Positions 3,858-62,220 of a DNA stretch of 64,000 nucleotides are shown here, piece after piece. A program made the position numbers and the translations under genes. This DNA is from a virus. Lineage: Duplodnaviria; Caudoviricetes. The first letter of the stretch is position 1; the number at the start of each line of letters is the position of its first letter. The stretch lies in the IMG/VR virus record IMGVR_UViG_3300038345_000144; one strand, 5' to 3'. Below the pieces are notes generated by a model. The model did not search any database. It saw only the letters and a list, made by a program, of their open reading frames with translations, and was not told the origin of the DNA.

Positions 3858-3876
3858 TATATAATTAAATAGTCTC
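3858..3876 (-). promoter_or_regulatory. Element-specific motif copy 1
   Basis: GAGACTATTTAATTATATA right after stop of GIY-YIG gene. Confidence 0.6.
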
Positions 3877-22600: not shown

Positions 22601-25600
22601 CTGGATAGGGTCTCCATCAGGGTCATCCTTTACTAATACGCAGATAACAGCACCATCGTCAGCAACTCCACCGCCCTGAACAGGGTAAGTAGGGTCGTAG
22701 AACGCAGTTGTATAGTCTACTGCGTGTGGGTTAAAGTCATAAAGATAACCACTGTTGTAGTTATAACCATTAAAGTTACGAACAGGAAGAGTTCCATCGT
22801 TCTCATAAACATTCCAGTTATTAGCAACAATATCATCTACTGTTAACTTAATAGCCTGTGTCTGACCACCAGTTTGACCCATAGGCTGTGTAAACTGATA
22901 TGTCTTGTTGTTACCTTCCATACGGAAAGTAAGACCTTCCATAGAGTAACAATTTGTGTAAGAACGGCTGTTTGCAGACTCTTTTGCTACATAAACATAG
23001 AGGTTAGTGATTACAGGAATGTCAAGACCGTTAACGTGGTATTGAGCATTGTATCTCTTAAACTGACCTTCAATCTGGTTCTGCTGGTTGCTATGAGAAT
23101 ATACCCAAACTTGATAATCATACCACTGTGAGTATGGAGTACCACTCGGATAAGTAAATGTGTTATCTACTGCCTGACCACCACCAAATGTGATAGTAGC
23201 ACCAGCACCAAGCACACCAAAGTTAATTGCACTTATGTTAGTTGCATCAATTGTGATGTTCCAATCACTATAAGTAACACGAAGTCCTGTATTAGCAGTA
23301 TTGATAGTATCAATATACTGAATAAGTGCCTTCTGTGCATCAGGAGCAACATCATCAGAATTAACAACCTTATTACCTGTGTGCTTATCAATAACACTTA
23401 CAGGAAGTGTATAAGTCTGACCAGGAATGATAAGAAGTTTACCATCAACAAGTGTCTGACCAGTATAGTCAATAGCAATATCATAGGTAACCTTTGTATC
23501 AAAAGTACCAGAATTGCTAAAACTACTTTCATTAGGAACACCTACTTCGGTTCCCCTAACAGAAATACCAGCACCATCACATAAGTATTCCCAAACCCAA
23601 GCCTGTTTTTCATCGTTATCATAAGAAGAATAACCTAAAACAAGTGAGATGTCGTGAACATTATCGTGATTATTAGCAGTATCATAAGGCAAATAAGAAA
23701 CCTTTGTACTCTTTGCATCAGGTTCAGCATATTCAGCAAAACCCATAACTCTATAAGGGTGTTCAGTGTGTCCATTTACTGTGGCAGTAGGATATGTTTC
23801 GTGCGGTTGAGCACAATATGTTCTATTTGTGTGATTTCCAGAACTATTGAAACCATTACCATATCCATCGTACCAACCACTACCATCTACACGAACAGCA
23901 TAACCATTTCTTTGCTTATTACCAATGATTGACTCATTAAGATTATCGGCAATAGTCTGATAATTAACTGTTTCAGTAGAAGATGATACACCTTCACCAA
24001 CGAACTTGTACGACTTTGTTCCTAAGTTATACAAGCCTCTTAAAGTCTGGTTGGCTCCCTGTGTAGTTAATCCGTGGTTAGTATCACTTACCGTTGCGTG
24101 GAACTGAATATTCCACTTATGCTCCATCTTATAATCCCAAGTCATAAAGACATTGTAAACATCTCCATATTCTTGAGCATAAATAGTACCGTGAGATATA
24201 TTGAAATCATATGTTGCTTTATGACTGTCTACAACAATACCTGTTATATCATCAATATCATTAGCAACATCATTAGTTCTACTCTGGTTAACAGATTGAG
24301 CACTATCACAAATATCCTTAAATACATCGCTAATATGGTTATAGTCTGCCATAATGGAATTACGCTCAATATCAATAGCGATGGCTCTATCGGAGTACGA
24401 TGCTGGAATATTATTCTGTCTTCGATACTCATTTATTTGGGCTTTAGTAACTTGGTGTGTATAAGGATTACCTGTGGATTGACCTGAACGACCAATAACA
24501 CCATCACCACTATTATCAAGTGAACCTGAAATAGTAACTTTAGTGCCATTATATGTTGTTTTATTTATTCCTAAAACATCTTCATCTTCTGGCTCGTAGG
24601 TATATTGAGTACCTGTGCTATAAAAAGTATTTCTATTTGCACAGCCAAGTCCCCAATAATCTGTATTATAGTCATCAGGAATTTCTGGCTCATCATCAAC
24701 AATAGGTGTGAGTGAGAAATTTTCCCAATAAGATACAGTATTTGAAATCTTACCTGCAATAAAAAGTGAAGCCGCATCTGAAGTAGAGTCAGCAACTACA
24801 TAATAATTAGCGTCAAAGTTAGACAATACATTCTTTGTACGGTCTGCATTAACAGCACCAATTGAATATGTAGCACAATTAGCAGGAATATACTCGCTTG
24901 CAGACTTATTGTTGTTACCTGCGGAAGCGACTACTGTAATGCCCTGTGTCTTACATTCCTCAATAAGAGACTTAAATGCGTCATATTCACCATTATCTCT
25001 TACAGAAATAGCAAGGAGAATATAATCTACATTCATTTCCTTTGCGAACTGAACAGCATTGTAAACATCAGAAATATTACCGTGACCGTCATCGCCAATG
25101 GCTTTGATTGAAATAATATAAGCGTCACTTGTATTGTTAAGAATGTTATTTACCATTCTTGTACCGTGACCGTTTCTATCATATCCATCATCACCATCAA
25201 GAATACAATAAGCCTCATTTGCAAGGTCGGAACCTGTATCAATAACGGCAACCTTAACAGTAGCGTCAGGGTTGATTTCAGCGTTACCATAACCAACAGA
25301 ACCAGTACCACAAACGGCTACATCACCGTCGATAGAATACTCATAACCCTTGTTTGCACAATAAGTAATGGCATTAAGATACTGTGACTGGTCAACAAAA
25401 CTAATTACATAAGTACCGTCAAAGTAAACACCAAAATCAGGATTAAGGTCCTTACTAATATCAGCCTTTGTGTTGATGATAAGTTTTGTACCAGACATTC
25501 CTGTGATATAGGTTACAAACTCTTCAAAAGATGTTGCAAGAACAATATTTGAAGGCTTGACCGCCTCTATCTTTGTAAACTCATATTCGTTAGATGTGAG

Positions 25601-26302
25601 ATAAGTAACAGCGTTGTTGAAAGCCTCTTCTGTGTTGAAGCAGAAGCAGTATTCACCATTAAAATATCTACCATCATCAAATGTGAGTTCTGTGAGGTCA
25701 TCTGTTGTAACAACATAAATCTTCCAAACATCGGAACCAATGGAAGCGATAAAAGCGTCATATTCGCTACCAGTCTCACAAACAGGAACACAAGTAATCT
25801 CTACTTCAGGTGTTTCCGTAGGAGTAGGTGTAGGAGTCTCGGAAGGCTCTGTTGTTTCAGAAGGCTCTGTGGTCTCTGATGTTTCGGAACTTTCAGTAGG
25901 CTCTGTTGCTTCAGTTGTTTCTGAAGGCTCTACTGTTGTAGGCTCCTCTGTATCAGAAGGCTCTGTTGCCTCTGTATTATCAGATGCCTCTGTTCCCTCT
26001 GTTGTAGGGGGAGCAGTCGAGTCGATACTATCTGAAGGTTCAGTAGTATCAATAACTGTTTCAGGTGTGGTCTCGTCAACAGGCTCCGAATACTCGGTTT
26101 CAGCCCCGTGTACTGGAGTGGTTTCAACAACAACCGTAGCCTGTGTACCGTCATCTGAATTTGCATTACTCTCAACAATCTGTGTCTCTGAAGGAGGAGT
26201 TATCTCATCGGCAATTACCTTTACTTCAGGGGCAATAGGAGCAAGTGCAATAACGGTAGCAAGAATACCTGATGTTATCTTCTTTCTAAAGTTTAATTGC
26301 AT
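16691..26302 (-). CDS. 3203-aa cell-wall-anchored adhesin: S8 subtilase-like, thioester (TED), SpaA/CnaB isopeptide and VaFE/T-Q ester domains, sortase signal
   Basis: Signal peptide; E/T/P linker; VAVIDTG, NGHGT, SAGN, STSDAA; YCAQP and QAWVW; repeated Y.v.EtkAP.GY; four HxDxxDxx(Q)T-like repeats; PKTGD+TM+KGKKK. Confidence 0.88.
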   Translation of the reverse strand: MQLNFRKKITSGILATVIALAPIAPEVKVIADEITPPSETQIVESNANSDDGTQATVVVETTPVHGAETEYSEPVDETTPETVIDTTEPSDSIDSTAPPTTEGTEASDNTEATEPSDTEEPTTVEPSETTEATEPTESSETSETTEPSETTEPSETPTPTPTETPEVEITCVPVCETGSEYDAFIASIGSDVWKIYVVTTDDLTELTFDDGRYFNGEYCFCFNTEEAFNNAVTYLTSNEYEFTKIEAVKPSNIVLATSFEEFVTYITGMSGTKLIINTKADISKDLNPDFGVYFDGTYVISFVDQSQYLNAITYCANKGYEYSIDGDVAVCGTGSVGYGNAEINPDATVKVAVIDTGSDLANEAYCILDGDDGYDRNGHGTRMVNNILNNTSDAYIISIKAIGDDGHGNISDVYNAVQFAKEMNVDYILLAISVRDNGEYDAFKSLIEECKTQGITVVASAGNNNKSASEYIPANCATYSIGAVNADRTKNVLSNFDANYYVVADSTSDAASLFIAGKISNTVSYWENFSLTPIVDDEPEIPDDYNTDYWGLGCANRNTFYSTGTQYTYEPEDEDVLGINKTTYNGTKVTISGSLDNSGDGVIGRSGQSTGNPYTHQVTKAQINEYRRQNNIPASYSDRAIAIDIERNSIMADYNHISDVFKDICDSAQSVNQSRTNDVANDIDDITGIVVDSHKATYDFNISHGTIYAQEYGDVYNVFMTWDYKMEHKWNIQFHATVSDTNHGLTTQGANQTLRGLYNLGTKSYKFVGEGVSSSTETVNYQTIADNLNESIIGNKQRNGYAVRVDGSGWYDGYGNGFNSSGNHTNRTYCAQPHETYPTATVNGHTEHPYRVMGFAEYAEPDAKSTKVSYLPYDTANNHDNVHDISLVLGYSSYDNDEKQAWVWEYLCDGAGISVRGTEVGVPNESSFSNSGTFDTKVTYDIAIDYTGQTLVDGKLLIIPGQTYTLPVSVIDKHTGNKVVNSDDVAPDAQKALIQYIDTINTANTGLRVTYSDWNITIDATNISAINFGVLGAGATITFGGGQAVDNTFTYPSGTPYSQWYDYQVWVYSHSNQQNQIEGQFKRYNAQYHVNGLDIPVITNLYVYVAKESANSRSYTNCYSMEGLTFRMEGNNKTYQFTQPMGQTGGQTQAIKLTVDDIVANNWNVYENDGTLPVRNFNGYNYNSGYLYDFNPHAVDYTTAFYDPTYPVQGGGVADDGAVICVLVKDDPDGDPIQQKVKKEDDEQWDEVNAPSAATTDGIQFTVYYYDDYFYDANSVTENIRVYNDSTALKEYFDTHTPTDTTTLTCTGQGTKDYGMVTINGLTCPKFALTQGQPPMRFGTYIVRETSTNEFYYLNNTPLFGMVVSQAVNGQPDEPLEQLYFYNNETNNGPMGNTLYVRQYPAQADSLCVTFNDKVVYGYAAIEKENILPTGVNAPLNGYKQGTSIDNTVYGIYSQAENKLYAVVVLDEYGKMKSVTYPDDIKPDENVAPIVRLTGGSQYFRLPTGDFYATEIRPTETNDIANAGTYPDGTTNSGTLITQFVGQTVNQSMFYGGMYYNFTSGVQGEKLNFTVTACHELDVASGEEPTDVEIVKVQATDYPSNAEFDFYLNKKAYNGWTYIGAEFTLYYDEACTQPIMTLTDNNDGHYVSTQAGNLRDYLTFSPTSYTVSESGDLLFNYNEKVYVKETKAPTILRDNNGNEWNIPEQNQTELLDTESVYTVQIDLTNVSQTTHIGTLTYTMSGGQIATPYSVQITNYHAHQSHNYSDDGQAQYEGKNIVISNNIDNFYYEDSMSGKVFKSTDTPFLDVNNNGQNDSTDYHFDINTTTFFITSGPLAGGYPTFTMAQLKEAKKNGQNLLKDYMKAQTNLVGYYEFGEDQWYDSAGNALPDGWDRLYGLVYDKTYYIYEIFEVPEYAYDNDNDSNPPASNGVYDIAGEIYEIVTAQNGTTSRVNTPRTASSIPYPNVATSTTAQIYNSSSWTQSSYFNTMWEMHFDSPEDTAHKMAVGEDSVTYAVQNHLMYGDIDLNKVWSEDNTDDRNSLAGYEFLFEYGGNLDKAYWDMDSSEMEAIGMPAYNEMPHTYIIRLTDINGNIHLEDIPAGWYRISENTNNMEVRFHSNRGADPQARATVKLVDQTEEVFYVVNVMDVPVYANKYDTWTGEPIVIDPFTGEKRPYEGNYAIRFELYSDTNKDGKITGAEKDNVRTIVDRPHSGIVAFNGLKSGQYAVREIITADGYYLDTGYRFVTIYDLNNNGSITDDIFEVKLYDEPYSAPITIEKLDSETKEPIKNAEFTIYYDNGSVEGEWDEQDEIAMTFEPQLDANGKQMFEQIALGYYDVDGNWQNQLDANGNQVYVDGKPLGTYRQARVWWDDAQGKYVSDPLRAYHVWNSTTGQFEHRNYVVVESKLPYGYSFADANGEPTVKPDQAIFAIEYPDMQVDASGKAELYMDDDYQLQPVENVVEVKVQNFVMYNAPIKIETEALSIHNGNHTLEVGNIVSLDDTIKYYNLAPTGRYTFRAELYAKDDLNTVLSNATVSVVPEAKDGTTKVTFENVNSAKLVEGVENADGTVTFTAKDLVVYVYCDWDSDFDIYDGQRADHCDVADTLETVTIVPPTVTTTFVDTVSGSHLTPIGENVPMNDAVKTTNLNVGETYYAEAVLVNGETGEKLIDRDTNKPYTNRVSFVPTAENHNECVANVPFEVDTVDFVKWNASENKLETIKIVCFERIYASDGTLIAVHEDLKDENQTVTIVPPTLHTTLIDVASNSHRGSLGTAVVIRDKVDYENASEGTEYTFRGQIWEVKADGTLGEKLFDGDSDTTFTATSREGTEYVYFSDIDSTKLCNDGQPVRIVCFEYMYCKAMVDDDNDDTTPMVEKEIQISSHEDVTDQNQNIDFKPELETTLLVVKGENDGDDFDNKLVLDNTVQTYADTVHHHDLVVGETYNVTASLVDQETGSQLYRSEGGEALTQTLTYVPETADGDYVVEFKDVDSGTFGYYRTNEETGEQEFVKPNQIVAFETLTSKTGFVFDMHKDLNDENQTIHRPHYLRVSIAKMDRDNVKYYLANAEITVYTGDGKVAKDVNGNDCVGLTNSEGKIEFVIRYVEGQTYYAMETKAPAGYNLNTDKHQIKPVSTTDYGKEEIIPISVFDRAIIIPPTPKTGDSMPIMALVALIIVGAVGLTTVFVVKGKKKSAIEANSASIEGNSNENPEE

Positions 26303-28845: not shown

Positions 28846-28920
28846 TTATATCTCCTTCCGCATCAAATGAAATGTAATTTTCTTTCATTTGAGTGTAAAT
28901 GATTTTCATTTGATAATTTC

Positions 28921-28949
28921 CTTATAGCATATTTTTACTTCTTTGTAAA
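28921..28949 (-). promoter_or_regulatory. sigmaA-type promoter
   Basis: TTTACA-N17-(TGc)TATAAG. Confidence 0.5.
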
Positions 28950-29021
28950 GGGTTACAATACCCTTTTTCATATAAAATATCAGATTTTTATTATAAATAT
29001 TAGATTTATTGTTAAAAATCA

Positions 29022-29360
29022 CTATTTCATATGAAAATGGAGCCTTGAATTCACTCCATACAACTTCTTATCGTAATCTACGCTTTCAAGTGTTTTCATT
29101 TGCTGTTGGAGTTTTCGTTTCTTTTTGTTTGTTATGGCTTTCATTCTGGAAAAATACTTCTGTTGTAACTTCAAAGCGACAATATCTTTGCCAGTTTGAA
29201 TGTCAAAAGTATCTAATTCAAGACAAGTAGCCATAGCAGTAAAGGTATGGAGCGTGTCATCTATATAAATGTCGAATTTACCCAGCGTCAATTTACTTTC
29301 AGGCATAAATACAAATGTCATTTTTCCACCCAAAATATCCATTGTTTGAACCGTTTTCAT
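29022..29360 (-). CDS. Hypothetical protein
   Basis: 112 aa, AAGGA RBS. Confidence 0.65.
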   Translation of the reverse strand: MKTVQTMDILGGKMTFVFMPESKLTLGKFDIYIDDTLHTFTAMATCLELDTFDIQTGKDIVALKLQQKYFSRMKAITNKKKRKLQQQMKTLESVDYDKKLYGVNSRLHFHMK

Positions 29361-29383: not shown

Positions 29384-29420
29384 AAAAAGTGTAGGGGCTA
29401 ACGCAAGCGTCAACCCCTAC
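29384..29420 (-). terminator. Intrinsic terminator
   Basis: GTAGGGG...CCCCTAC hairpin followed by T-tract. Confidence 0.75.
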
Positions 29421-29537: not shown

Positions 29538-30200
29538 TTAGAACCACTGTTCTTTAAGGACTTTATCGGGGTCTTTACCTACAATATTGTAGTCTGGGAG
29601 TACCAAAGGCTTATTATCATCAGTAACGATGAATTTGCCTTTTTTCATACGCTCGACCATCGGATGTACTTTGTTGCTCGCTTTCGCTCTCCTATACATT
29701 TCCAACCAGATAGCCTTTTTCCCGATTTCCGTACCACTATCAAGAAAGAGTTGGTCTTCTTCACTAATCTTTGGTGCGTCATCAGCATCGACCTGTGATT
29801 TAATAACAGGGATATTTTCGACGGGTGAAGTCGGCGTAGATACATCAACAGCAACGGACTCCGCAGTTTCCTGTGGTTGAACGACCTCTTCCTTAACGGG
29901 TTCAGTATCTTGAACCTGTGTAGGAGTTTCTTGAGGTGGTTGCGGAGGACTTTCTGCTTGAGTCGGAGTTGGAGGTATCGTATTCTCTTCTCCATTTGGT
30001 TTTGTGTTTACCGATACATTCACCTGTTTTATCTTTAACTTGATAACAGTAGGTTTCTTGACCTCATCTTCGGTCCTTTCAGGTGGTATAACTTTAGTAA
30101 CCGCTTTTTCAGGTGGAATAACTTGTATTGACGGTTCTGGCGGGGTGCTAAACACAATATCTTGTGTTTGTAACTCCTGCATAAAGTCAACTAAAGACAT
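29538..30200 (-). CDS. Pro/Glu-rich hypothetical protein
   Basis: 220 aa, AGGAGG RBS, disordered N-part and compact C-domain. Confidence 0.7.
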   Translation of the reverse strand: MSLVDFMQELQTQDIVFSTPPEPSIQVIPPEKAVTKVIPPERTEDEVKKPTVIKLKIKQVNVSVNTKPNGEENTIPPTPTQAESPPQPPQETPTQVQDTEPVKEEVVQPQETAESVAVDVSTPTSPVENIPVIKSQVDADDAPKISEEDQLFLDSGTEIGKKAIWLEMYRRAKASNKVHPMVERMKKGKFIVTDDNKPLVLPDYNIVGKDPDKVLKEQWF

Positions 30201-30245
30201 TTATTATTCCTCCTTTAATATATAAGTTCCCTAATCAATCTGTTT

Positions 30246-30608
30246 TTACTGTTGAGCCATAAGGTTCTCGACATTAGCGTGTACCGTATAAACCGTCTGA
30301 ATTCTTGAAATGATGGTCTTGAGTTGGTCTATCAGTTCAGGGGCTTCTAACTCCTGACCACGATACTTGACCAACCCTTGCTCATCAATAGAAAATACAA
30401 CAGATGGTTGACCGTCCTTGTCGAGACAGATGGCTTGATAGTCACAACATTCATCTTGGTAATTGTCGTTTGTAACAAGAACATCGTCTTCTGATATAGG
30501 TTCAATTATTTCAGACCAATCAGGGGAAGAGATGTTACGCATAGTAATTACCTGATTATCTAACTTTGAGAGCATCAAAGTTAATTCTTGGGCTAAATTA
30601 TTATACAT
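30246..30608 (-). CDS. Hypothetical protein
   Basis: 120 aa, GAGGAG RBS. Confidence 0.7.
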   Translation of the reverse strand: MYNNLAQELTLMLSKLDNQVITMRNISSPDWSEIIEPISEDDVLVTNDNYQDECCDYQAICLDKDGQPSVVFSIDEQGLVKYRGQELEAPELIDQLKTIISRIQTVYTVHANVENLMAQQ

Positions 30609-30627
30609 AACGAATTCTCCTCTCTAA

Positions 30628-30969
30628 TTACTGACCGTCGATAATTTCACCAACATTATCATTAACGGCATCGACACCCTTCTGTCCGAGGTCCTTTGCA
30701 GTATTACCAAGTGTCTGATAGTTCTGTGCCAAGAAGATAATACCAATCATAAGGATGAGGAAAAGAGCCTTACCGATAATACCGAGTACGGAACCTGAAC
30801 CTGAACCCTTTGCGAAGGCAATACCTTCCTTAACGATTGCATAGATGAGGAAAGCCGCAACCAGACCACCACCGATAGTAGCCGCCCACTTAACAAGGTT
30901 TTGGACAATCTCTGAACCTTCTGCAAAAACTACCATAAAAGGTAAAAGTTTTGATAAAATTGCTTCCAT
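30628..30969 (-). CDS. Small 2-TM protein, VirB2/TrbC/TcpD-like pilin candidate
   Basis: Short leader ending VFA, two hydrophobic helices with Gly-rich loop; transfer context. Confidence 0.5.
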   Translation of the reverse strand: MEAILSKLLPFMVVFAEGSEIVQNLVKWAATIGGGLVAAFLIYAIVKEGIAFAKGSGSGSVLGIIGKALFLILMIGIIFLAQNYQTLGNTAKDLGQKGVDAVNDNVGEIIDGQ

Positions 30970-30984
30970 TTTTCAATTCCTCCT

Positions 30985-31518
30985 TTAGAATTTGTCCTGC
31001 ATATAGTCGAATACTATCTGCATTTGATTTTTGTTGAAACCGTATAATGAATATCCTGACTTACGCAAATCATCAATGATGTCGTTTGCCAGTTTACTCA
31101 TAATCGGGTCATACTGTTTCGTAGAAGAGTTGTCCTGCTGTGGAGCCGACTCCTTCTGTACTGTCGTTTCTTTTCTCGGTCTACCCGCACGACTCTTCTT
31201 CTTATTATTATTAAATAGTCCTTCCTGTGACGGTTGTGTTACAGACGGTGCTTCTGGTACTTTGGTATCTACCGCAACCGCTTCTCCCTCCGTCGCAAGG
31301 GGGGCTACTTCTGACTCTGGAGTATCAAGAGTAATCTCCTGAATTCCTGTGCTTGAAAGCAGTGCATCTTTGGACTCTGCTGACATTTCAGAGAAAATAT
31401 CCTCATTTTCCTGTGCTGATGTCATCTGCTCCTCTAAAGTATAAGTTGACTTTGGGGTATCGTCCAAAGCCTCTTGAGCGATACCTTCAAGTCTTGAAAG
31501 TGCATCTTCTCTACCCAT
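30985..31518 (-). CDS. Acidic protein with AT-hook-like motif
   Basis: KKKSRAGRPRKE followed by helical C-terminal domain. Confidence 0.6.
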   Translation of the reverse strand: MGREDALSRLEGIAQEALDDTPKSTYTLEEQMTSAQENEDIFSEMSAESKDALLSSTGIQEITLDTPESEVAPLATEGEAVAVDTKVPEAPSVTQPSQEGLFNNNKKKSRAGRPRKETTVQKESAPQQDNSSTKQYDPIMSKLANDIIDDLRKSGYSLYGFNKNQMQIVFDYMQDKF

Positions 31519-31524
31519 AATAAT

Positions 31525-32103
31525 TTACTCTCCTTTGTTCTTATTGCGTGGTTTAATAAGATTGCTAAATGTTGTAGGTTCGTCCTTTTGTGGAGGATTA
31601 TCTCCACCTGCAACCTTTAACTTCAAAGGTGTAGAAATCTTATTCGGTTTAGGTACAGGGACATTAGAACCGCCTGACGGGTCTCTACCACTTAAGGTAG
31701 GAACTCTATCGAATATAGCCGAAGCCTGTTCCATAGAAGCATCTGGATATTCTGCAAGAGACATCTGCATCTTGAGTGCCTGATACTCTGTCTGAAGGGA
31801 CATTTCGTTGGCTTTCGCCTTGTTGTACTCTTCCTTCAACTTCATATTATCTTTGGTAAGATTACTGATTTCATCTTCCAAACCCAAGATAATCTTATCG
31901 ACATCTTCAGGGTAATATCCATAAGGGGCTGATACACGAATACCAAGCCTTTTTGCTACTTCAGATAATTCCTGCTCGAATTTTTCAGCCAATTTACGAG
32001 GATTTTTCACCTTCTTGTTAGAAGCCTTTGGCTCCTTAACTGGCTTTTCCTTTACGGGCTTTGTAGGCTTCTCTTTAGGCTCTTTTGGTTTTCCAAATGC
32101 CAT
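31525..32103 (-). CDS. DivIVA/GpsB-domain coiled-coil protein
   Basis: YGYYPEDVDKII matches DivIVA GY..eeVD.fl, followed by coiled coil. Confidence 0.65.
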   Translation of the reverse strand: MAFGKPKEPKEKPTKPVKEKPVKEPKASNKKVKNPRKLAEKFEQELSEVAKRLGIRVSAPYGYYPEDVDKIILGLEDEISNLTKDNMKLKEEYNKAKANEMSLQTEYQALKMQMSLAEYPDASMEQASAIFDRVPTLSGRDPSGGSNVPVPKPNKISTPLKLKVAGGDNPPQKDEPTTFSNLIKPRNKNKGE

Positions 32104-32448
32104 TTAGACCACCTCCACATATTCCTGCGACTCCCTATCAAACTTAATCTTCACTACCTTATCAGCACAAATTATCTTGTTATAGACAATCTTGCCGTCC
32201 TTTGTAGTGTACTGTTCGGAGTCCAACTTGCCGTAAATCCTTACCATACAACCAGTTTGAATGGTCTCTTCGTCATACTCATTGATGACATTAGGGTAAA
32301 CTACCCTGACGCAAGTGAAACGCTTTTTGTCAGGGGCGTTTGCCATACAATGATATATGCCAGTAATGGCACGGATGTTAAAATTAGCCACTTCGTCCAA
32401 GAGTTTAACATTGTCCTGAACACAGCCGTCAATAATGATTTTATTCAT
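32104..32448 (-). CDS. Short SSB-like OB-fold protein without acidic tail
   Basis: MNKIIIDG..., G.MVRIYGKL....Y..KDG. Confidence 0.7.
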
Positions 32449-34030
32449 CTTCGGTTTCCTCCATACTGACTATTCTCTCCAATTGCTCGATAATATCAGC
32501 ATTTTCATCAATAAGATGCCATCTCTGATACCACTGAACCTGTGAAATAATATTATCAATATTACCGAAAGCGGCAATAACAGGAGCATATTTAGTGAGG
32601 TTGCCTACAACGAGGTCGTTAATAGGGTTGTCCTGAACTGTACCGTCAGGCAATACCATCTTGTTATAAACTCTCGTAAGGACAATGCTACACTTGTCGA
32701 GTATCTTGTTCTTTTCGTTAAATACATTGTTTCTACGAGTACCACAGAGGGTAGTAAGTTGCTTAACAACGGACTTAACAGAGTTGATGGAAGGATTACA
32801 AGTAAGGATAATCCTATCCGCTAACTTATAAAGCATTGAAATAGGTGCTTTTCCGAGGTAGTCGATACCACTGTCAAAGAACACTACATCATAGTTAGAG
32901 AGTAACTGCTTGAATACATCAATCCAGAAAGTTGTGTTTTCTGTGATTTCAGGAATGTCCTGTGCAGGAGCAAGGTAGAAATCAATGTTTGATGCGAAGT
33001 GGTCACTTCTAACCCTTACATTGTTGAGGTAAGAGAAATCTCTGTTACCACCAATATAGTTCTTATAGTAGTCCTGAAGTGTCGGACCTAACTTGTTGAT
33101 AGTAATACCAATCTGACCGTCGATAATATCGAAGTCAGCCAATGCCACCTTCTGATTAGGGTGAGTCTTTGCATAGTAATATGCACTAATAAGAGCCGTA
33201 AATGTCTTACCAGTACCACCCTTTGAAGAACCAAAGAGAATAACCTTTGCGGAGCCATTCTTATTGGCATAACTCTTCGTACCATCATCCTGCAACATAG
33301 CGTCAAGTTTAACCTTGATTTTTGTTACATCGACAGGCTTATCAACCGCCATCAGGCTTTCAGTCTTCTGCAAAGCAGGTTGCTGATTGAACATTGATGT
33401 TGACTGCGGAGCAGGTGCGGGAGCAACTGGAGCCTGTGGAGCAGGTTGAGGTATAAACTGCTGTGGATAAGAAGGCTGGTAGTACGGATTGACCTGCGGT
33501 TGAGGTGCAGGTTGAGGCTGTGGCTGATAATTGCCAGGTCTCATTTCTGGCTGAACAACAGGCTGTTGAACAGGCTGTACTACTGGCTCTACCCTCGGCT
33601 GAACTACTGGCTCTGGAACAATCGGAGCCTGCTGAACAACAGGTTCAGGTTCGGGTTCAGGCTCTACCACTGGCTCTGGTTCAGGAGTAACTTCCTGAAT
33701 AACAGGTTCAGGGATAGGTTCTGGCTCTGGCATAGGCTCTGGTTCAGGCTGTGAAGCCTCGATAACCTTTACATTCTCGATAGGGAATGATGGTTCGGGT
33801 ACATCACTAAACCTGTAATAAACAACCAACACATTCGCCGCTTCATACTGCTTGAGTCCCTCATAGACATCAGGAGTAATTACGGAGACATCATACCAAA
33901 TGCCTTCATCGACCTCGATACCATCATCAGATGTAGCCCTTGCGATGAACTCATCTGCGGTCCACTGGTCTTTTTGAAAACCGTCCAATTCAGACGGAAC
34001 TCTTTTGTCGTTGGTTACTACAATAAACAT
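32441..34030 (-). CDS. MinD/ParA (CpaE-like) ATPase with N-terminal domain and long Pro/Gln/Glu linker
   Basis: Deviant Walker [26 protein letters not shown]. Confidence 0.85.
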
Positions 34031-34095: not shown

Positions 34096-34122
34096 TTACA
34101 ATTAAATAGTCGTTCATTTTAA
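34096..34122 (-). promoter_or_regulatory. Element-specific motif copy 5
   Basis: TTAAAATGAACGACTATTTAATTGTAA; first 20 nt identical to copy 2. Confidence 0.7.
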
Positions 34123-34143: not shown

Positions 34144-36942
34144 TTACGCCTTTGGCTTCCTAACCATAGCAATTTCTCTGGAAGCCCAGTTCTTTGCTCT
34201 ATTGATATTGTTCTTGACATTACGGAAGTCTTGTTTAGCCTCTTCATACTTGAACGCCTGAATAGTCAAGCAAGCCAAGATATAAACAAAGCCTAATACA
34301 AAGCCCTTATCGACAAGAGCCATATAGAGCATTACCATAATAACTAACTTAATATTAGCCAAAACATAGTCAATCAAGCACTTTCCAATCTTACCAGTAA
34401 ACGCTGATAAGCCCTTCTGCTCCTTGAACAATTCGAGAATGGTAAACCATATCATCTGAACCATTGTAAGTAACAAAAGGAAGAAGTTTTTGATTTTTGC
34501 CCATATTGTAGGCAACATAATGAATAACATTAAGGCATTACAGAGCATTATGTTACCCTCTTTGAAGTAGTGGGTATTAGGAATAGATGCGTCTGTATAG
34601 TTATTAGCAATTGTACCGTCTGGGTACTGTTGAGGGGATATATTGAATTGAGCGTCAATAACCCTGTAAGTATCTGCCATAAGGGTACTGTCATAAGCGG
34701 TTGTAGTAGCGTTAGGGAAGTAGATCGGCTGTGATAAGTCAAATTCACCTGCCTCCGATACATTCTTTACCGAGTTATCAATATGGTACTTACTACCACA
34801 AGACATAAGGTAAGCCGCCCAGTTTCTAACCTCTTTACCACCACCAATAGGTACATAGACATCACCTGTGTACTTGGCACTATCAAAGAAAGGATTTCCT
34901 GATGTGTCAGCAGGGTCGATTGTCTGGTGGCTTTGAGGCATTACGGATTGTCCATCCTGTAAAGTTGCATAGTGCGTATAGAGTTTCTCATAGTCTAATC
35001 CGCTAAACTGACCTCTACACCACGGCTGGAATATGGCTGTACGCCACAAACAAGCGTGAACTTGCATATTTTCGTCGCTACAATGGATAACTTCGTCATC
35101 TTCGCAAGTCTTGTTAAGTGCATAGTTAAATAACTGGTCAATTGCGGTCAAACCACGATAAATTGTATTATTCATAACGGAAGGGTTATTTACCGATAAG
35201 AATAACAAGCCTAATGCTATGACACCAATGATAAATCGTTCAATAACATCTTTAGGCGAACTTCCTGTACCTTTTGAATATTGAAAAACTTTCTTGACCA
35301 AAGAGAAGATAAAGGCTACCATAGCGAACGCTAAAATAAGATTTACAGCAATTTTAATGGTATTCCAAGCGTCTGTGGTCTCAAATTTAGTCAATAATAT
35401 TGTAAAGTGAGCAGGAATTTCAGTACCTATCAATAGGGATATAAGTGCTACGATATACTTGGCAAAGGTCATATTGATTTCGCCTGCCTCATATGTATAA
35501 CCCATAAAAGCACTTACACCTACAAGGTCTGTTCTTGGGTCCTGAAATCCGTCGTTGCGTTCTGAAGAAGAAAGCACTGTTGGACGACCCTCGTAAACCT
35601 CACAAGACAAATAGTTTGTACTGGAGTACATAATGGTCTCCAAAACGCCTAATTTATTCAATCTGCGTTCTGTCCAAGCAGACCAAATGTGGTCAGCAAG
35701 TTTTGGAGAGTAGGTCTTTTCTCCTAAATACCTATACCAGTGTAGATTTTCACCAAATAACTCAAATAGGCAATATTCTGGTGAATTATTACCATTTCCC
35801 ATTACTTGGTTAACATACCCCGTTAGTACATTAACATTTTTGGCGTTTTGTGAGGATTGTAATGAAGAGTCAGCAATAGTAAGATTACCATTTTCATCCT
35901 CTACATATACATTTGTGGACTCAAAGATAAATCCTGAATTTTGAGGGTAAATAAGGTTTTTACCAATATAGTAATAGAATATTGAACGGTCAATAATATC
36001 CTCACGAACAAACGGAGGCAATACCATATCAGTATCAGCCAAAACATCATAAGCATAGTTGAAATCATATAAAGAGCCTGCAAACTCATTATAGATTGCC
36101 TGTGCCGCTTCCTGTCTTGGAGCGTAATAATCCTCATTTGTGTTTCCCTCAAAGTTTAAGGAGAAATCTTTTGTAATTTCATTAAGGTCAGTGGAGTCCT
36201 TCCACTTTTCTTTGTATTCTTCCCAATAAGAAAATCCACTATCACCGTCTTCGGACATAGTAAACATAATCTGGCTTTCTAAAACCCACCACTCGCAATT
36301 ATGCTTATTACACCAGTCCAAAAGACCAACGGCTCTGTCAGCAGTCCATTGTGCCAAACCAATACCACAATATCCTTGACCTCCGACTGAAAAGTAGAAG
36401 GCTTCGGCTATACCATTGTCAGTAAAGTCAACACCTAAACGGGCTTGCTCAATACCCCACTGGTTCTGATTAGCGTCATCGCCCCAACAATGCCAACCAT
36501 CGCAAAGACAAGCAACTGTCATAGCATCGTGACATTCGATATATTTAGCGGAACAATTAGCAATATAATCATTAACAGCGTCAAAAGTATCATCATATTG
36601 ACTACCTACCGTAGCAGTAGGTACACCGTCAGTTACGGTAATTCTTGGATTTGCCTCGACGAGTTCTGGCTTGAATTCACATTCACATTTCCAGCATCCC
36701 ATTACACCTGCCGCTTCATATTCAGTCAAGCCATATGTTCTCAAAATACTCCAGATTTTGTACTTATTTTGCTCAACTGGACCAGTAAAGTTGCCTTGTA
36801 CGGTAGCCTTCTTGATTTCTGTTCCATCATAGTAGTCGTCGGCATAAACCGTTACGGCGGGAGAGGCGAAACTTGCCGTCATAGTGATTGAAATGACCGT
36901 TACAGCCAATAATGAAACAATTTTTCGAAATAACTTACTCAT
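34144..36942 (-). CDS. Phage-tail-type lysozyme fused to VirB6/TcpH-like polytopic membrane domain
   Basis: Signal peptide; IWSIL...AAGVMGCWKCE..P...GIGLAQWT..R...Q..F; later TM pair, FQPWCRGQF, C-terminal TM cluster. Confidence 0.7.
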   Translation of the reverse strand: MSKLFRKIVSLLAVTVISITMTASFASPAVTVYADDYYDGTEIKKATVQGNFTGPVEQNKYKIWSILRTYGLTEYEAAGVMGCWKCECEFKPELVEANPRITVTDGVPTATVGSQYDDTFDAVNDYIANCSAKYIECHDAMTVACLCDGWHCWGDDANQNQWGIEQARLGVDFTDNGIAEAFYFSVGGQGYCGIGLAQWTADRAVGLLDWCNKHNCEWWVLESQIMFTMSEDGDSGFSYWEEYKEKWKDSTDLNEITKDFSLNFEGNTNEDYYAPRQEAAQAIYNEFAGSLYDFNYAYDVLADTDMVLPPFVREDIIDRSIFYYYIGKNLIYPQNSGFIFESTNVYVEDENGNLTIADSSLQSSQNAKNVNVLTGYVNQVMGNGNNSPEYCLFELFGENLHWYRYLGEKTYSPKLADHIWSAWTERRLNKLGVLETIMYSSTNYLSCEVYEGRPTVLSSSERNDGFQDPRTDLVGVSAFMGYTYEAGEINMTFAKYIVALISLLIGTEIPAHFTILLTKFETTDAWNTIKIAVNLILAFAMVAFIFSLVKKVFQYSKGTGSSPKDVIERFIIGVIALGLLFLSVNNPSVMNNTIYRGLTAIDQLFNYALNKTCEDDEVIHCSDENMQVHACLWRTAIFQPWCRGQFSGLDYEKLYTHYATLQDGQSVMPQSHQTIDPADTSGNPFFDSAKYTGDVYVPIGGGKEVRNWAAYLMSCGSKYHIDNSVKNVSEAGEFDLSQPIYFPNATTTAYDSTLMADTYRVIDAQFNISPQQYPDGTIANNYTDASIPNTHYFKEGNIMLCNALMLFIMLPTIWAKIKNFFLLLLTMVQMIWFTILELFKEQKGLSAFTGKIGKCLIDYVLANIKLVIMVMLYMALVDKGFVLGFVYILACLTIQAFKYEEAKQDFRNVKNNINRAKNWASREIAMVRKPKA

Positions 36943-36966: not shown

Positions 36967-39900
36967 TTATTTTTTGATTTTTCCATTTCCTGCCTGTTGA
37001 TTGTTTTGTGCAGGCGGTTTTGGTTGTTTGTTCTCATCATCGTTTCCTTTGATTTTTGAACTATCTGGTCTGTTGAGTTGAGTCTTTGGAGTCTCATTTT
37101 CAGGTGTAGTATTAGCCTTAATCTTATCAGCGTCTTCCGAAGAAGAGTGATGAGTAGCCTGATAATCAACCTTCTGTGTAATGTCTGCAACACGGGCATC
37201 AAAAGCCTTTTCATCAGGGTTAAGAGCACCGTTACCAGTCTCACTGCCTAATGCTTTAATCTTATCCTGTGCCGCTTTCTGCAAAGCAGTCAACTGCATA
37301 CCATATTCTTTCTGTCTACGCAAACCTTGTTCATAGTAATCGAGGTAGACTTGCTCAAATCTCTTATCTACACCGCCCTTACCGTTGCTGAACTCGTTTG
37401 CAATAGTACCATCTTCCTTAAACAATCTACGAGTCTTCTTCTCATAGTCTTGTTTCTCCTCATCAGTGAACTGAACACCTGCTCTTTGGGCATTGAAGTC
37501 TGCGTCAGTATTTGCTCTCTGCTGATTTCTATTTCTCTGCATTTGCTTGAAGTTAGTAAGCCAATAAATAGGCTCAAGGGTAGATGGGAATATCTGTGCG
37601 GCTCCGACTCTTAAGTGCCTCCACCATCTTAAAACGGCAAATAAGAACCAGAACAGGAATATTACCATTACTAATCCAAAGAGTCCCTCTAATTCACAAG
37701 TTAATATGAAAATAATACCTGTGAGGACACCCATACAAATAATTGCAAAGAGAGGAGCAAATGTCTCAATGAGAATATCTGCCCACTTTTTCTTCTCAAC
37801 CTTATTGATAATGGCACGGAAGAAGAACAAATAAAGCATCCACCAGAACCATACGAAAGTTAAGAATTTAATGACGGAAATGAAACAATACAAGCAACAA
37901 AGCAATAATTTAGTGAGCAAGTCTAAAATACCGCCCTGAAATTCTCCGTTATAGTTTTCATTTGTAGCAGTTGTAAGTTTTACCTTTGTACTGTCTACTG
38001 TTGAAATAGTAACTCTTGGAGCCATAAAGTGGTCAACTACACGATAAGCGTTGTTATTGATAGTAGAACCATTGACATTTTCTCCTGAAGCAGTCAATAC
38101 GCTGTGTGATACAGAGTCCGAGTCACCATAGTAGGAGAACGAGTCGGCAAGCATAATTGAATATTGCTTGACATTGTTTGAACCAATTTTAGGATAGTTC
38201 ACTCCAACTAACTCTGGGAGATTAGATGAAGTGTTAATCTGCTGTTGGTCAGCCTTAATGCCGTAACCTGTGTTGTACTTTGACCAAGTATCAAGATATG
38301 GGATATAGTAAGTAACTGAATAATCTGCCTCATCTCCAAAGAGATATGCTAAATCAGGGTCACTTCCTACGGTTGCCATTTCACCAATATTGATTATTCT
38401 GGACTCCGCATATTTGAACTTTTGCCAAGCATTAGCAGGGTCACTGGCTACATAAGTCATAAGACCTAATTCGAATACAAGTAATAAGAACGCTCCAATT
38501 ACTCGTACACCGCCTTTTGAACCATTCTTCCAAATGATAATAACGGTTTTTATGATAAAATATGCGGCGAGTAGTCCCATAACTATCGTTATCCACACAT
38601 CTTCCCATAAGTTAGCAGGAGATAATCCCCAACTGTCCCAAACATCGAAATCACACAATTGCTGTAAGAATACAGAAACTTCCGTGATTTTACCTGCTAA
38701 TTTGATAATAGTAGGCTGAATATGGAAATAAATCATTATATCTCCACCGACATTCAGGTTGCCAACAAAGTTACCGAGCATATGGCTATACCACAAATCA
38801 ACTCTTGGGTCAGAAACCGCATAGTTTTGAGCATCATTCTGAAGAAGAGTTCTTGTGTCATAAGGCATTACTCTTGGGTCGTCTTTCTGGACAGTATTAA
38901 GCGGTGCTGTGTTACCTTCTGCTTTAGCGGTAGCACACATAATCTTAATCATATTAGCAACAACTTGATTGTAATATGGACCTGCATACGACTGTATTTT
39001 CTTAATAACCTTATAGGTATCTTCTATTGACAGAGATTGTCCTGCCTTTGAACCACCACTCAAGTATGGCTCTGTAATACGATATAGACCACTATACGCA
39101 TACAAACTTGCTACTGTAATGGTAGTTCGACCACCACCATAGGCTTCAGACCAACATTCATTGTCTTCACCCTGATTGGTAATCATACATTGACGATATA
39201 CAACAACACTCATTTCACCATCGGAGGCATCATCTGTACCTCTGTTGAACATAGTGATGAAGTTCTCATAATCAGTCATTGTCTGCTGTGAAGCCTCATA
39301 GTGCTTCAAAACCTCAACCTGTGAACCCGTAAGGAAGTCATTTGTGCCGTCTGAACCAGTATCTCTGGTATTAGGACCAGCCAAATTTCTAATGTGAAGG
39401 TTTACAGTAGGGTTGCTAACCAAACCTGTAATGAGTGTATTGTAGAGAAGTTTACAATCGGGATAACCCTCAATCCAAACCTCCAAATCATAAGGATTTG
39501 TCATTGTGGCTTTAGGGTCAACTGGTACAGGAAGATTGTCATTAGGAGTGTCCATAGTGTGTGCCGACTCCCAAGAACCTGAATACTGAATAGTCTTCGG
39601 ATAACCATTATGACTACACCAATCTGCCTCTGTCGGATAATCCGTTGTGTTTCTGTGGTTCATCTTATACCAGTCAGAATACTCATAATAAGGATTACCA
39701 TTACCTTTAATAGATAAACGATAGTTATTATAAGTAGTTAAGTTGGTATTATAAGTATCACAGGCACTATTGTATGCCGCCAAAGCATCGGAAAATTTCA
39801 TTTCTGATGTGTTTCCTGTCGGGTCTGTCCAACTACAATACAATAATGGATAGATTTTGTTGCTTTCCATATCGGAGGTTAAACCACCGTCATTAAGGGC

Positions 39901-41133
39901 AACTAAACTATCATAGAGTTTTTGCTGTTGTTCCTTACCAGCAACATTATCCATCTGTTGACCTAACGGGCTGGACGGGAGGGTAATACTCGCATAACCA
40001 GTATATCCTGCCGTATTTCCCCACGCCAAGTTAGCCATATAGAAGATTTTTCTATTATCTTCAGACTCTTGGAGCCAAGTAGATACATCGTCGATATAAA
40101 GTTGGTCATTTACCAAGAAAAGGTAAAAACCAGGCGTAGAAATCAAACCAAAGAAGAAATCTTGGTCTTCAAAGCCACTAAAATCATTGATATGAACTCC
40201 TGCCGAAGAGTGAGTAAATCCATAATAAACTGGGTCAAAAGTGGAAGTTGTATAGTTAGTTCCAAAAGTATTCATATTACGCTCGTAAAGCGAATACAAA
40301 TCATATTCTTTCTTATGCTGTTGACAATACTCACTCGCCGCATCGTTAGCGTCCTGCGTAACTGTCTTGGTGAGCAAGTCATTTACATCGGTAAAGTAAG
40401 TTTCACCATCTACGCTATCTTCGGCTATCTGTTTAACGAAGTAAGGTAGATAGTAACTGTGGAAGAAGTTAACAACATATTCAGAACTATCTGTGTAAGT
40501 GTGATTTAAGTAAGTAAGAGTATTAAAGTTATCGGCATCTGGGGCTTTTAAGAATGAAGCACCAAACAAAGCCTTAATACTTCTCCATAAGAATTTCCAG
40601 AAACCTTGTTCTGGGGAAGGGATAATACCAGCCAAAGACATAGTTTCTTTAGGATATTCTCCCATATAAGTATAACTTGGAATATTAAAGCCATACTTTG
40701 TAATAGCGTTTTCTTGAAGTGTTGCACCATTATCACCTGAACCAACATCTACAAGCCACTGTGTTTGGTTAATATCATAGGTTGAGTCGGTATAACCATC
40801 GGGAACAAACTCTACAACCTGATTTTTAACCAACTGCTGAAGGTTAGGGGTGTTGAAATAACACTTATAAGTACCATCACTACACTTTTTGATTACGGTA
40901 AAGGTATGGAATGACCAAATCCACTGATATAAGTCACCAACATCGGAAATACCGAAATCAAAGAGACTGTTGACATTTTCGCCCTCAATTATGTAGTAGG
41001 TAGCACCATTATCTTCATCGCTGTCGTTTTTCTTATAGTCATCAGCGTGAACTGTTAACATTGAAAAAGGAGATACGATGATTATAAGTGACATCAGCAC
41101 TACGACAACCTGTTTTAGCCAATTCTTAAACAT
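36967..41133 (-). CDS. Large VirB6/TcpH-like membrane protein with big extracellular N-domain
   Basis: Signal peptide, DPRVDL and YRVVD shared with 34144-36942, TM clusters, charged tail. Confidence 0.6.
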   Translation of the reverse strand: MFKNWLKQVVVVLMSLIIIVSPFSMLTVHADDYKKNDSDEDNGATYYIIEGENVNSLFDFGISDVGDLYQWIWSFHTFTVIKKCSDGTYKCYFNTPNLQQLVKNQVVEFVPDGYTDSTYDINQTQWLVDVGSGDNGATLQENAITKYGFNIPSYTYMGEYPKETMSLAGIIPSPEQGFWKFLWRSIKALFGASFLKAPDADNFNTLTYLNHTYTDSSEYVVNFFHSYYLPYFVKQIAEDSVDGETYFTDVNDLLTKTVTQDANDAASEYCQQHKKEYDLYSLYERNMNTFGTNYTTSTFDPVYYGFTHSSAGVHINDFSGFEDQDFFFGLISTPGFYLFLVNDQLYIDDVSTWLQESEDNRKIFYMANLAWGNTAGYTGYASITLPSSPLGQQMDNVAGKEQQQKLYDSLVALNDGGLTSDMESNKIYPLLYCSWTDPTGNTSEMKFSDALAAYNSACDTYNTNLTTYNNYRLSIKGNGNPYYEYSDWYKMNHRNTTDYPTEADWCSHNGYPKTIQYSGSWESAHTMDTPNDNLPVPVDPKATMTNPYDLEVWIEGYPDCKLLYNTLITGLVSNPTVNLHIRNLAGPNTRDTGSDGTNDFLTGSQVEVLKHYEASQQTMTDYENFITMFNRGTDDASDGEMSVVVYRQCMITNQGEDNECWSEAYGGGRTTITVASLYAYSGLYRITEPYLSGGSKAGQSLSIEDTYKVIKKIQSYAGPYYNQVVANMIKIMCATAKAEGNTAPLNTVQKDDPRVMPYDTRTLLQNDAQNYAVSDPRVDLWYSHMLGNFVGNLNVGGDIMIYFHIQPTIIKLAGKITEVSVFLQQLCDFDVWDSWGLSPANLWEDVWITIVMGLLAAYFIIKTVIIIWKNGSKGGVRVIGAFLLLVFELGLMTYVASDPANAWQKFKYAESRIINIGEMATVGSDPDLAYLFGDEADYSVTYYIPYLDTWSKYNTGYGIKADQQQINTSSNLPELVGVNYPKIGSNNVKQYSIMLADSFSYYGDSDSVSHSVLTASGENVNGSTINNNAYRVVDHFMAPRVTISTVDSTKVKLTTATNENYNGEFQGGILDLLTKLLLCCLYCFISVIKFLTFVWFWWMLYLFFFRAIINKVEKKKWADILIETFAPLFAIICMGVLTGIIFILTCELEGLFGLVMVIFLFWFLFAVLRWWRHLRVGAAQIFPSTLEPIYWLTNFKQMQRNRNQQRANTDADFNAQRAGVQFTDEEKQDYEKKTRRLFKEDGTIANEFSNGKGGVDKRFEQVYLDYYEQGLRRQKEYGMQLTALQKAAQDKIKALGSETGNGALNPDEKAFDARVADITQKVDYQATHHSSSEDADKIKANTTPENETPKTQLNRPDSSKIKGNDDENKQPKPPAQNNQQAGNGKIKK

Positions 41134-47443: not shown

Positions 47444-47465
47444 CATAATTAAATAGTCGTTCATT
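47444..47465 (-). promoter_or_regulatory. Element-specific motif copy 7
   Basis: AATGAACGACTATTTAATTATG. Confidence 0.7.
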
Positions 47466-58767: not shown

Positions 58768-58784
58768 TTACAATTAAATAGTCT
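58768..58784 (-). promoter_or_regulatory. Element-specific motif copy 8
   Basis: AGACTATTTAATTGTAA right after stop of HAD gene. Confidence 0.65.
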
Positions 58785-62199: not shown

Positions 62200-62220
62200 T
62201 TATAATTAAATAGCCGTTAA
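62200..62220 (-). promoter_or_regulatory. Element-specific motif copy 9
   Basis: TTAACGGCTATTTAATTATAA overlapping upstream stop codon. Confidence 0.65.

Follow-up and report, generated by a model that had tools for sequence, protein, structure and literature searches.

A conserved operon encoding a ParA/MinD-fold ATPase, an SSB-like and a DivIVA/GpsB-like protein: a candidate organiser of a type IV secretion-like envelope machine

The ParA/MinD-type ATPase VirC1 of the Agrobacterium Ti plasmid serves the transfer of DNA by type IV secretion. The Walker-type ATPase StbB of plasmid R388 is reported to be required for conjugation, and the operon that encodes it to keep a balance between stability and transfer (PMC3098194). 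In a different setting, TadZ/CpaE positions the Tad machine together with its T2SSE ATPase at the cell pole and needs the landmark proteins PodJ or RomR (bioRxiv 10.64898/2026.07.08.737194). Here, we describe a seven-gene operon in a 64,000-nucleotide stretch of DNA (the window) from the IMG/VR record IMGVR_UViG_3300038345_000144, in which the gene of a ParA/MinD-fold ATPase is co-translated with the genes of an OB-fold protein that resembles SSB, the protein binding single-stranded DNA, and of a DivIVA/GpsB-like protein. Our data tentatively favour, at slightly under an even chance, that the operon encodes a TadZ/CpaE-like cytoplasmic organiser, with a landmark protein of its own, for a type IV secretion-like envelope machine of the element.

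The seven genes are tightly packed on the minus strand (34030..29538) as one operon, with intergenic spacings of -8, 0, 6, 15, 19 and 45 nt. From promoter side to terminator the following features were found:

34100..34109, minus strand: promoter-like motif CTATTTAATT, 70 nt 5' of the ATPase start codon
32441..34030, minus strand: 529-residue ParA/MinD-fold ATPase, assigned by fold, Walker A motif and family matches
32104..32448, minus strand: 114-residue SSB-like OB-fold protein, its gene overlapping the ATPase gene by 8 nt
31525..32103, minus strand: 192-residue DivIVA/GpsB-like protein, assigned by family-level matches to PF05103
30985..31518, minus strand: 177-residue acidic adaptor-like protein X, characterized by alignments, without family match
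31171-31185, minus strand: AT-hook GRPRK in X, which reads AGRPRK in the window protein
30628..30969, minus strand: 113-residue protein with a signal peptide and two transmembrane (TM) segments forming a hairpin (2-TM protein), assigned by topology, TrbC/T4SS_pilin matches and reciprocal hidden Markov model (HMM) matches
30246..30608, minus strand: 120-residue acidic protein g120, present in 12 of 18 compared loci
29538..30200, minus strand: 220-residue protein g220, present in all 18 loci
29391..29420, minus strand: strong intrinsic terminator closing the operon, with 7 GC pairs among the 13 of its stem and a T run behind it

The motif CTATTTAATT occurs in five exact copies in the window, compared with 0.49 expected; all are intergenic, upstream of genes and on the minus, coding strand. 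Besides the copy before the ATPase gene these are:

3863-3872, minus strand: copy of CTATTTAATT
47447-47456, minus strand: copy of CTATTTAATT
58772-58781, minus strand: copy of CTATTTAATT
62204-62213, minus strand: copy of CTATTTAATT

The motif is kept at the same place before the ATPase gene in nine of ten relatives and probably functions as a promoter or regulatory signal specific to the element. With the motif upstream and the terminator after the last gene, the operon is a genuine unit of transcription, distinct from the genes upstream of it; hence, one motif-headed operon, as proposed in an earlier prediction made from the sequence (the original prediction), was recovered with all seven genes on the minus strand. 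The AT-rich intergenic region at 28860-29040, approximately 500 nt downstream of the operon, harbors 2.2 copies of a 20-nt tandem repeat, a direct repeat in 2 copies and an imperfect palindrome of 37 nt; it may represent a regulatory site or else a centromere, for which it is a weak candidate. A centromere-like iteron or repeat array was not found near the operon, the sole candidate being the AT-rich imperfect palindrome with the 2-copy repeat at 28962-29040.

The same gene order, g1388-g932-ATPase-OB-DivIVA-like-X-2TM-(g120)-g220, in which g1388 and g932 denote two giant envelope proteins encoded upstream, was found with per-gene HMMs in all 18 loci, situated on contigs of 116-586 kb that include IMG/VR records at approximately 40% identity and one contig of a 'Bacilli' metagenome-assembled genome (MAG). 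The genes are therefore syntenic in relatives down to this level of identity, a point on which the original prediction could have fallen. Relatives in IMG/VR were found by a profile scan; a scan with the single protein gave nothing. In one search the ATPase family fell into 252 clusters at 90% identity; another, counting matches below 1e-30, gave at least 65 clusters at 50% identity. Neither the operon nor the ATPase matched plasmid and phage reference collections, be it as DNA or as protein. We read the elements as a giant (approximately 0.1-0.6 Mb) extrachromosomal family of gut and rumen Bacillota with the operon as conserved core module. Since the operon block belongs to the few invariant multi-gene modules of these elements, it probably performs a function that they cannot lose.

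The ATPase is built of a receiver-like alpha/beta domain (residues 1-95), a Pro/Gln-rich linker (residues ~96-245) and the ATPase domain (residues ~255-529). An AlphaFold model built from 73 relatives was confident for the N-terminal and the C-terminal domain (pLDDT >85 in the ATPase domain), with the Pro/Gln tract disordered. The ATPase domain aligned in VIA with 3ea0 at Z 23.5 (root mean square deviation 2.6, 237 residues) and with MinD, FlhG, FleN and McdA at Z 21.3-21.4, its ParA/MinD matches extending down to Z 20, and in Foldseek with 1hyq at E 8e-10. Among sequence models, Pfam AAA_31 gave 27.0 bits, which equals its cut-off of 27 and is borderline, CbiA gave 20.7 bits, below its cut-off of 25.4, and phrog_164 'ParA-like' was matched at 3e-15. 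The deviant Walker A motif reads S-S-K270-G-G-T-G-K275-T; K270, G271, G272, G274 and K275 are invariant in the 73 relatives, as are the aspartates of Walker A' and Walker B. With deviant Walker A, fold and family score in agreement, the protein is a member of the ParA/MinD superfamily, and the deviant-Walker ATPase of the original prediction, with its KGGxxK[ST] motif, is thus corroborated. The invariance of K270, K275 and the Walker A'/B aspartates speaks for a working ATPase and not for a degenerate scaffold; its catalytic core, including a canonical deviant Walker A, is intact and should allow dimerisation on ATP.

The solved sequences closest to the profile of the C-terminal domain were the MinD proteins of E. 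coli and P. aeruginosa, the sole match being MinD at 0.005, and the full-length profile had no match among PDB sequences. Against MinD equivalog models 17-22 bits were obtained at cut-offs of 213-508, and the C-terminal amphipathic membrane helix of MinD is absent, the C-terminus being acidic and without hydrophobic segment. The only solved structure that aligned over both domains of the ATPase was 3fkq (Foldseek rank 3; VIA Z 20.4, residues 1-523), which is TadZ of Eubacterium rectale (PMC10499894). When folded alone, the N-terminal domain matched almost exclusively receiver domains at Z 5.9-7.6, among them the receiver-like domain of CpaE (4dn6, Z 6.5), and no conserved Asp was found at its phospho-acceptor position. 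The original prediction had placed the ATPase on a long Pro-rich tether; the tract is real, with 40 Pro and 22 Gln in 140 residues and a length of 56-232 residues (median 127) in 71 relatives, but it joins the N-terminal domain to the ATPase domain. Collectively, the model resembles the two-domain design of TadZ/CpaE.

The second gene product is an SSB-type OB fold by sequence comparison, because the family profile matched solved SSBs over the full length (7d8j at 5.1e-6, 5yyu at 1.1e-5) and relatives carry precomputed SSB matches; the window protein alone reached 18.8 bits with Pfam SSB (PF00436), below the cut-off of 26. It lacks a disordered linker and the acidic tail of the DDDIPF type, ending 10-15 residues past the OB fold in a conserved (E/D)(Y/F)VEV tip, which may serve partner binding in place of the usual acidic SSB tail. 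The tailless SSB of the original prediction thus holds as an SSB-like protein. Of the four positions at which SSB makes aromatic contacts, only about two are kept as we read the alignment.

The third gene encodes a protein with Lys-rich N-terminus and the invariant core motif IRVSxPYGYYPEDVDK. A coiled coil follows this motif, and SLxExPD and F.NL.KP are conserved as well. Among its 45 family members, 35 matched PF05103 at E<=0.01 (best 1.7e-6); no generic coiled-coil family was matched by more than 10. At E 0.05-0.3 the GpsB entries 4ug3, 4ug1 and 6gp7 align on GYYPEDVDK, leaving a gap of 7 residues, and the NCBIfam DivIVA-related model hits the same motif at 0.024. It is therefore likely that the protein possesses a DivIVA/GpsB-type N-terminal module. 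The original prediction of a DivIVA-domain coiled coil holds for this N-terminal motif at the family level, whereas the window protein itself stays under the curated PF05103 cut-off (20.2 versus 28 bits). In an alignment made by eye the loop tip is occupied by P60-Y61 with the invariant R56 close by; we take this P-Y to correspond to the F17/R18 loop tip of B. subtilis DivIVA.

Protein X displays an invariant N-terminal ALxRL (R9), an acidic linker, the AT-hook and a conserved C-terminal helical domain of approximately 45 residues. An AT-hook of the form RGRP(R/P/A/S)K is present in 10 of 16 relatives, the others having a degenerate basic patch or, in two cases, none, and Pfam AT_hook matched one member of the family at 0.012; the GRPRK protein that had been announced is thus borne out. 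The invariant N-terminal Arg peptide makes X a candidate for a MinE/ParB-type stimulator of the ATPase by analogy. No ParB_N domain or equivalent adaptor was matched by any operon protein, in agreement with the earlier statement that no ParB is recognisable. Finally, in g220 a Pro/Gln-rich linker joins an N-terminal motif to a C-terminal domain of 75 residues, both of them conserved; its search against the ESM Atlas yielded nothing usable, and neither g120 nor g220 had relatives outside this family.

The connection of the operon to the cell envelope comes from the 2-TM protein and the two upstream genes, which were present next to the operon in every locus:

34144..36942, minus strand: g932, 932-residue envelope protein with signal peptide, large external parts, numerous TM helices and a lysozyme domain of the phi29 gp13 type
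35134-35370, minus strand: residues 525-603 of g932, a hairpin homologous to the 2-TM protein by HMM matches
36967..41133, minus strand: g1388, 1388-residue envelope protein with signal peptide, large external domain, TM helices and charged cytoplasmic tail

Reciprocal HMM matches of 1e-4 to 8e-10 connect the 2-TM protein with hairpins in g932 and in some g1388 proteins (those of the relatives L002 and L011), and a SLVK....Y.KG.G.S motif is common to all three. By sequence, the 2-TM protein is a free-standing paralogue of the TM hairpin inside both giant envelope proteins, hence the operon and the envelope genes share a building block, and the paralogy suggests a hetero-oligomeric membrane assembly made of three paralogous modules. 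The topology of the 2-TM protein fits a type IV secretion system (T4SS) pilin of the VirB2/TrbC type. The pilin-like protein of the original prediction therefore stands as regards signal peptide and two TM helices, whereas the matches to T4SS pilin families are weak (TrbC 5.2e-4, T4SS_pilin 0.037, two members each, all under the cut-offs); its profile found no match in the PDB, nor did that of g1388. An assignment of g1388 as TrbL/VirB6, suggested by an ESM Atlas cluster in which 14% of the members carry TrbL, was not confirmed by a Pfam scan of 14 members.

Furthermore, putative genes of a secretion machinery exist elsewhere on the elements. Five relatives are complete (G001-G005, the IMG/VR records behind loci L008, L009, L010, L012 and L016; 250-467 kb), and all five encode a T2SSE ATPase 19-23 kb upstream of the operon on the same strand as well as an AAA_10 (VirB4-like) ATPase. 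The T2SSE ATPase is DotB/PilT-like, with DotB closest (5.7e-35), and its gene is preceded by TcpE-like and VirB4-N-like genes. Just upstream of this cluster in G001, an NAD-dependent DNA ligase is divided between two neighbouring genes (L025, 12376-15123), one comprising the adenylation and OB domains, the other a zinc finger plus HhH and BRCT domains.

The more distant homologues of the ATPase point in the same direction. In three of four contexts of the next tier (E 1e-18 to 1e-9), TcpE, an AAA_10 ATPase and the ATPase are encoded in a row, and one of the three also has T2SSE and T2SSF. The original prediction had supposed that the element carries its own polar landmark to place the mating pore or to tether its DNA, possibly to reach the forespore; the link to a mating or transfer machine is strengthened by the adjacent envelope proteins in 18 of 18 loci, the hairpin paralogy and the TcpE-AAA_10 contexts, whereas the rest of that claim draws no support from these observations. 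The triad of TcpE, AAA_10 and a MinD-like ATPase of approximately 460 residues is contiguous in another clade of large elements:

L026, 5458-9392: TcpE/AAA_10/MinD-like ATPase triad
L028, 8367-11389: the same triad, directly followed by SecA and SecY, on an element that also encodes gyrase A, thymidylate synthase and RtcB
L029, 282-3523: the same triad

A more distant homologue, L027, had no informative neighbours. Other leads were discarded: the 30%-identity match L021 from a Clostridia MAG is a plain 240-residue ParA in an unrelated context, and neither the 865-residue neighbour nor the N-terminal part of the distant homologue P0218 has detectable kinship to g932, g1388 or the N-terminal domain of the ATPase.

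By analogy with the placing of the Tad machine through landmark proteins by TadZ/CpaE, the organiser might act as follows. The DivIVA-like protein would mark a membrane site, at which the ATPase would be held via its tethered N-terminal domain or its dimer surface. There, the ATPase would recruit or license an envelope complex made of both giant envelope proteins and their small 2-TM paralogue and powered by the DotB/PilT-like and AAA_10 ATPases from other parts of the element. X and the OB protein would bring DNA to this complex.

Several observations weigh against such an organiser. The type IV secretion matches of the neighbouring genes are weak (TcpE 2e-4, VirB4-N 0.0019, TrbC 5e-4), the TrbL lead for g1388 was not confirmed, and the DotB-like and AAA_10 genes are situated 20 kb to more than 100 kb from the operon. 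A VirD4-type coupling protein and a T2SSF platform gene were without match in the five complete relatives. The receiver match of the N-terminal domain stays below Z 8, and Foldseek returned nothing significant for this domain (no match below 1e-3). Moreover, TadZ has a variant Walker A, a short linker and a position inside tad loci, unlike the present ATPase with its canonical Walker A and very long linker. Finally, the operon ATPase is the only ParA-type gene on the five complete relatives, AAA_10 genes aside, on which ParB_N, tubulin and ParM were likewise not matched; positive controls were matched in the searches for ParB_N, tubulin, VirD4, T2SSF and virion genes, the ParM search being run without one. 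Since there is this sole ParA-type ATPase and no match for ParB, tubulin or ParM, the elements may need the operon ATPase for partition.

Partition of the element's DNA is therefore the main rival explanation, possible though rather unlikely. The ParA-like ATPase would then act with the AT-hook protein and/or the OB protein in place of ParB, and the DivIVA-like protein would provide the anchor at membrane or pole, as in ParA-DivIVA or RacA-DivIVA. Besides the lack of any other ParA/MinD-type gene and of matches to the other partition families, which in the case of ParM is tempered by the missing control, this would agree with the invariant full deviant Walker A, with two modules of DNA-binding type in the operon (OB and AT-hook), with the invariant N-terminal Arg peptide of X, which resembles ParB/MinE-type stimulators, and with a promoter motif that is the operon's own and distinct from the envelope genes. 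However, no centromere-like repeat array adjoins the operon, the AT-hook is absent from some relatives, the operon contains a secreted 2-TM paralogue of the envelope proteins, and the genes for more distant homologues of the ATPase lie within TcpE-AAA_10 clusters.

It is improbable, albeit conceivable by analogy with StbB of R388 and VirC1 acting on T-DNA, that the operon serves both ends, i.e. that vegetative positioning of the replicon is coupled to its delivery at the transfer channel. Such a dual purpose would unite the evidence for an organiser and for partition, has a precedent in StbB (PMC3098194), and an SSB-like protein would suit the handling of transferred single-stranded DNA; it is however entirely inferential, neither a relaxase nor a coupling protein was identified here, and in the OB protein only about two of four aromatic contacts are kept.

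The question whether these elements are phages or plasmids bears on the same operon. The window contains a set of surface proteins, comprising lipoproteins, a signal peptidase and the following adhesin:

16691-26302, minus strand: 3203-residue TQ/SpaA adhesin with TPKTG at its end, behind which come a TM segment and a basic tail

TPKTG belongs to the (S/P)PxTG kind of sortase signals and points to a host that is Gram-positive, possibly of clostridial type; the surface-protein set as a whole points to a cell-bound transfer element of a Gram-positive host. The five complete relatives are listed as complete viral genomes. In them Terminase_6N, Terminase_6C, HK97 capsid, portal and sheath were not matched, and each encodes an AAA_10 and a DotB/PilT-like ATPase. 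Whether the family is rightly labelled viral needs checking. Divergent virion genes could escape the Pfam models used. A giant phage with a virus-specific use of the operon, which would place a replication or assembly site or an entry or exit structure at the host membrane, appears very improbable: relatives are entered in IMG/VR as viral with terminal repeats, in one of them the operon block is flanked by genes for DnaB, primase and a split multisubunit RNA polymerase, and g932 bears its phi29 gp13-type lysozyme domain, but the five virion and packaging families remained unmatched and the surface-protein set is typical of transfer elements.

Giant elements of this kind are common in gut and rumen metagenomes and essentially undescribed. 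If the organiser reading is true, they would be the first mobile elements, as far as found, that bring their own DivIVA-type landmark and a TadZ-like ATPase, and the operon would offer a handle on the placement, inheritance or transfer of very large replicons in Gram-positive cells. A more far-reaching proposal, which we regard as distinctly unlikely, is that the operon represents an undescribed class fusing partition with the positioning of type IV secretion in Gram-positive hosts, in which a Pro/Gln-tethered MinD-type ATPase with a receiver-like domain, its own DivIVA-like landmark and SSB-like and AT-hook adaptors would dock a replicon of 0.1-0.6 Mb at a channel of three paralogous TM-hairpin proteins.

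Compared with known systems, the operon shares with type Ia/Ib ParABS a deviant Walker A ATPase gene followed by small adaptor genes, one of them with an N-terminal Arg-containing peptide. It differs by the extra N-terminal domain and tether of the ATPase, the membrane protein inside the operon and the lack of a ParB_N or ribbon-helix-helix partner and of adjacent centromere repeats, none of which were found. With VirC1 and StbB it would have in common that ParA/MinD-type ATPases of mobile elements serve transfer through type IV secretion, instead of or besides partition (for StbB, PMC3098194). In contrast to the present system, VirC1 and StbB are small single-domain ATPases of Gram-negative bacteria with ribbon-helix-helix or other DNA-binding partners, and we know of no DivIVA-like, SSB-like or 2-TM partners for them. 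With MinD and MinJ-DivIVA in B. subtilis as well as with ParA-DivIVA/Wag31 in Actinobacteria the operon would share the pairing of a MinD-type ATPase with a coiled-coil protein that has a likely DivIVA/GpsB-type N-terminal motif and is here encoded next to it. However, the ATPase described here is without C-terminal amphipathic helix, MinC, MinE or MinJ are not recognisable in the operon, the DivIVA match lies under the curated threshold, and the system is encoded by the element and not by the host.

From TadZ/CpaE the operon differs in that no tad locus is present, T2SSF not being found and Flp pilin and prepilin peptidase not having been searched for, that the T2SSE gene, at a distance of 19-23 kb, is most similar to DotB/PilT, that the linker comprises 56-232 Pro/Gln-rich residues, that Walker A is a full KGGxxK[ST], and that the N-terminal domain is reduced to two helices with a fold match below Z 8. 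Nevertheless, both have a linker and a ParA/MinD-type ATPase domain and appear to share an atypical receiver-like domain at the N-terminus, and both are associated with a T2SSE-family ATPase. This two-domain architecture, which was missed in the original prediction, makes TadZ/CpaE a closer precedent for the operon than the MinD-DivIVA system of Bacillus.

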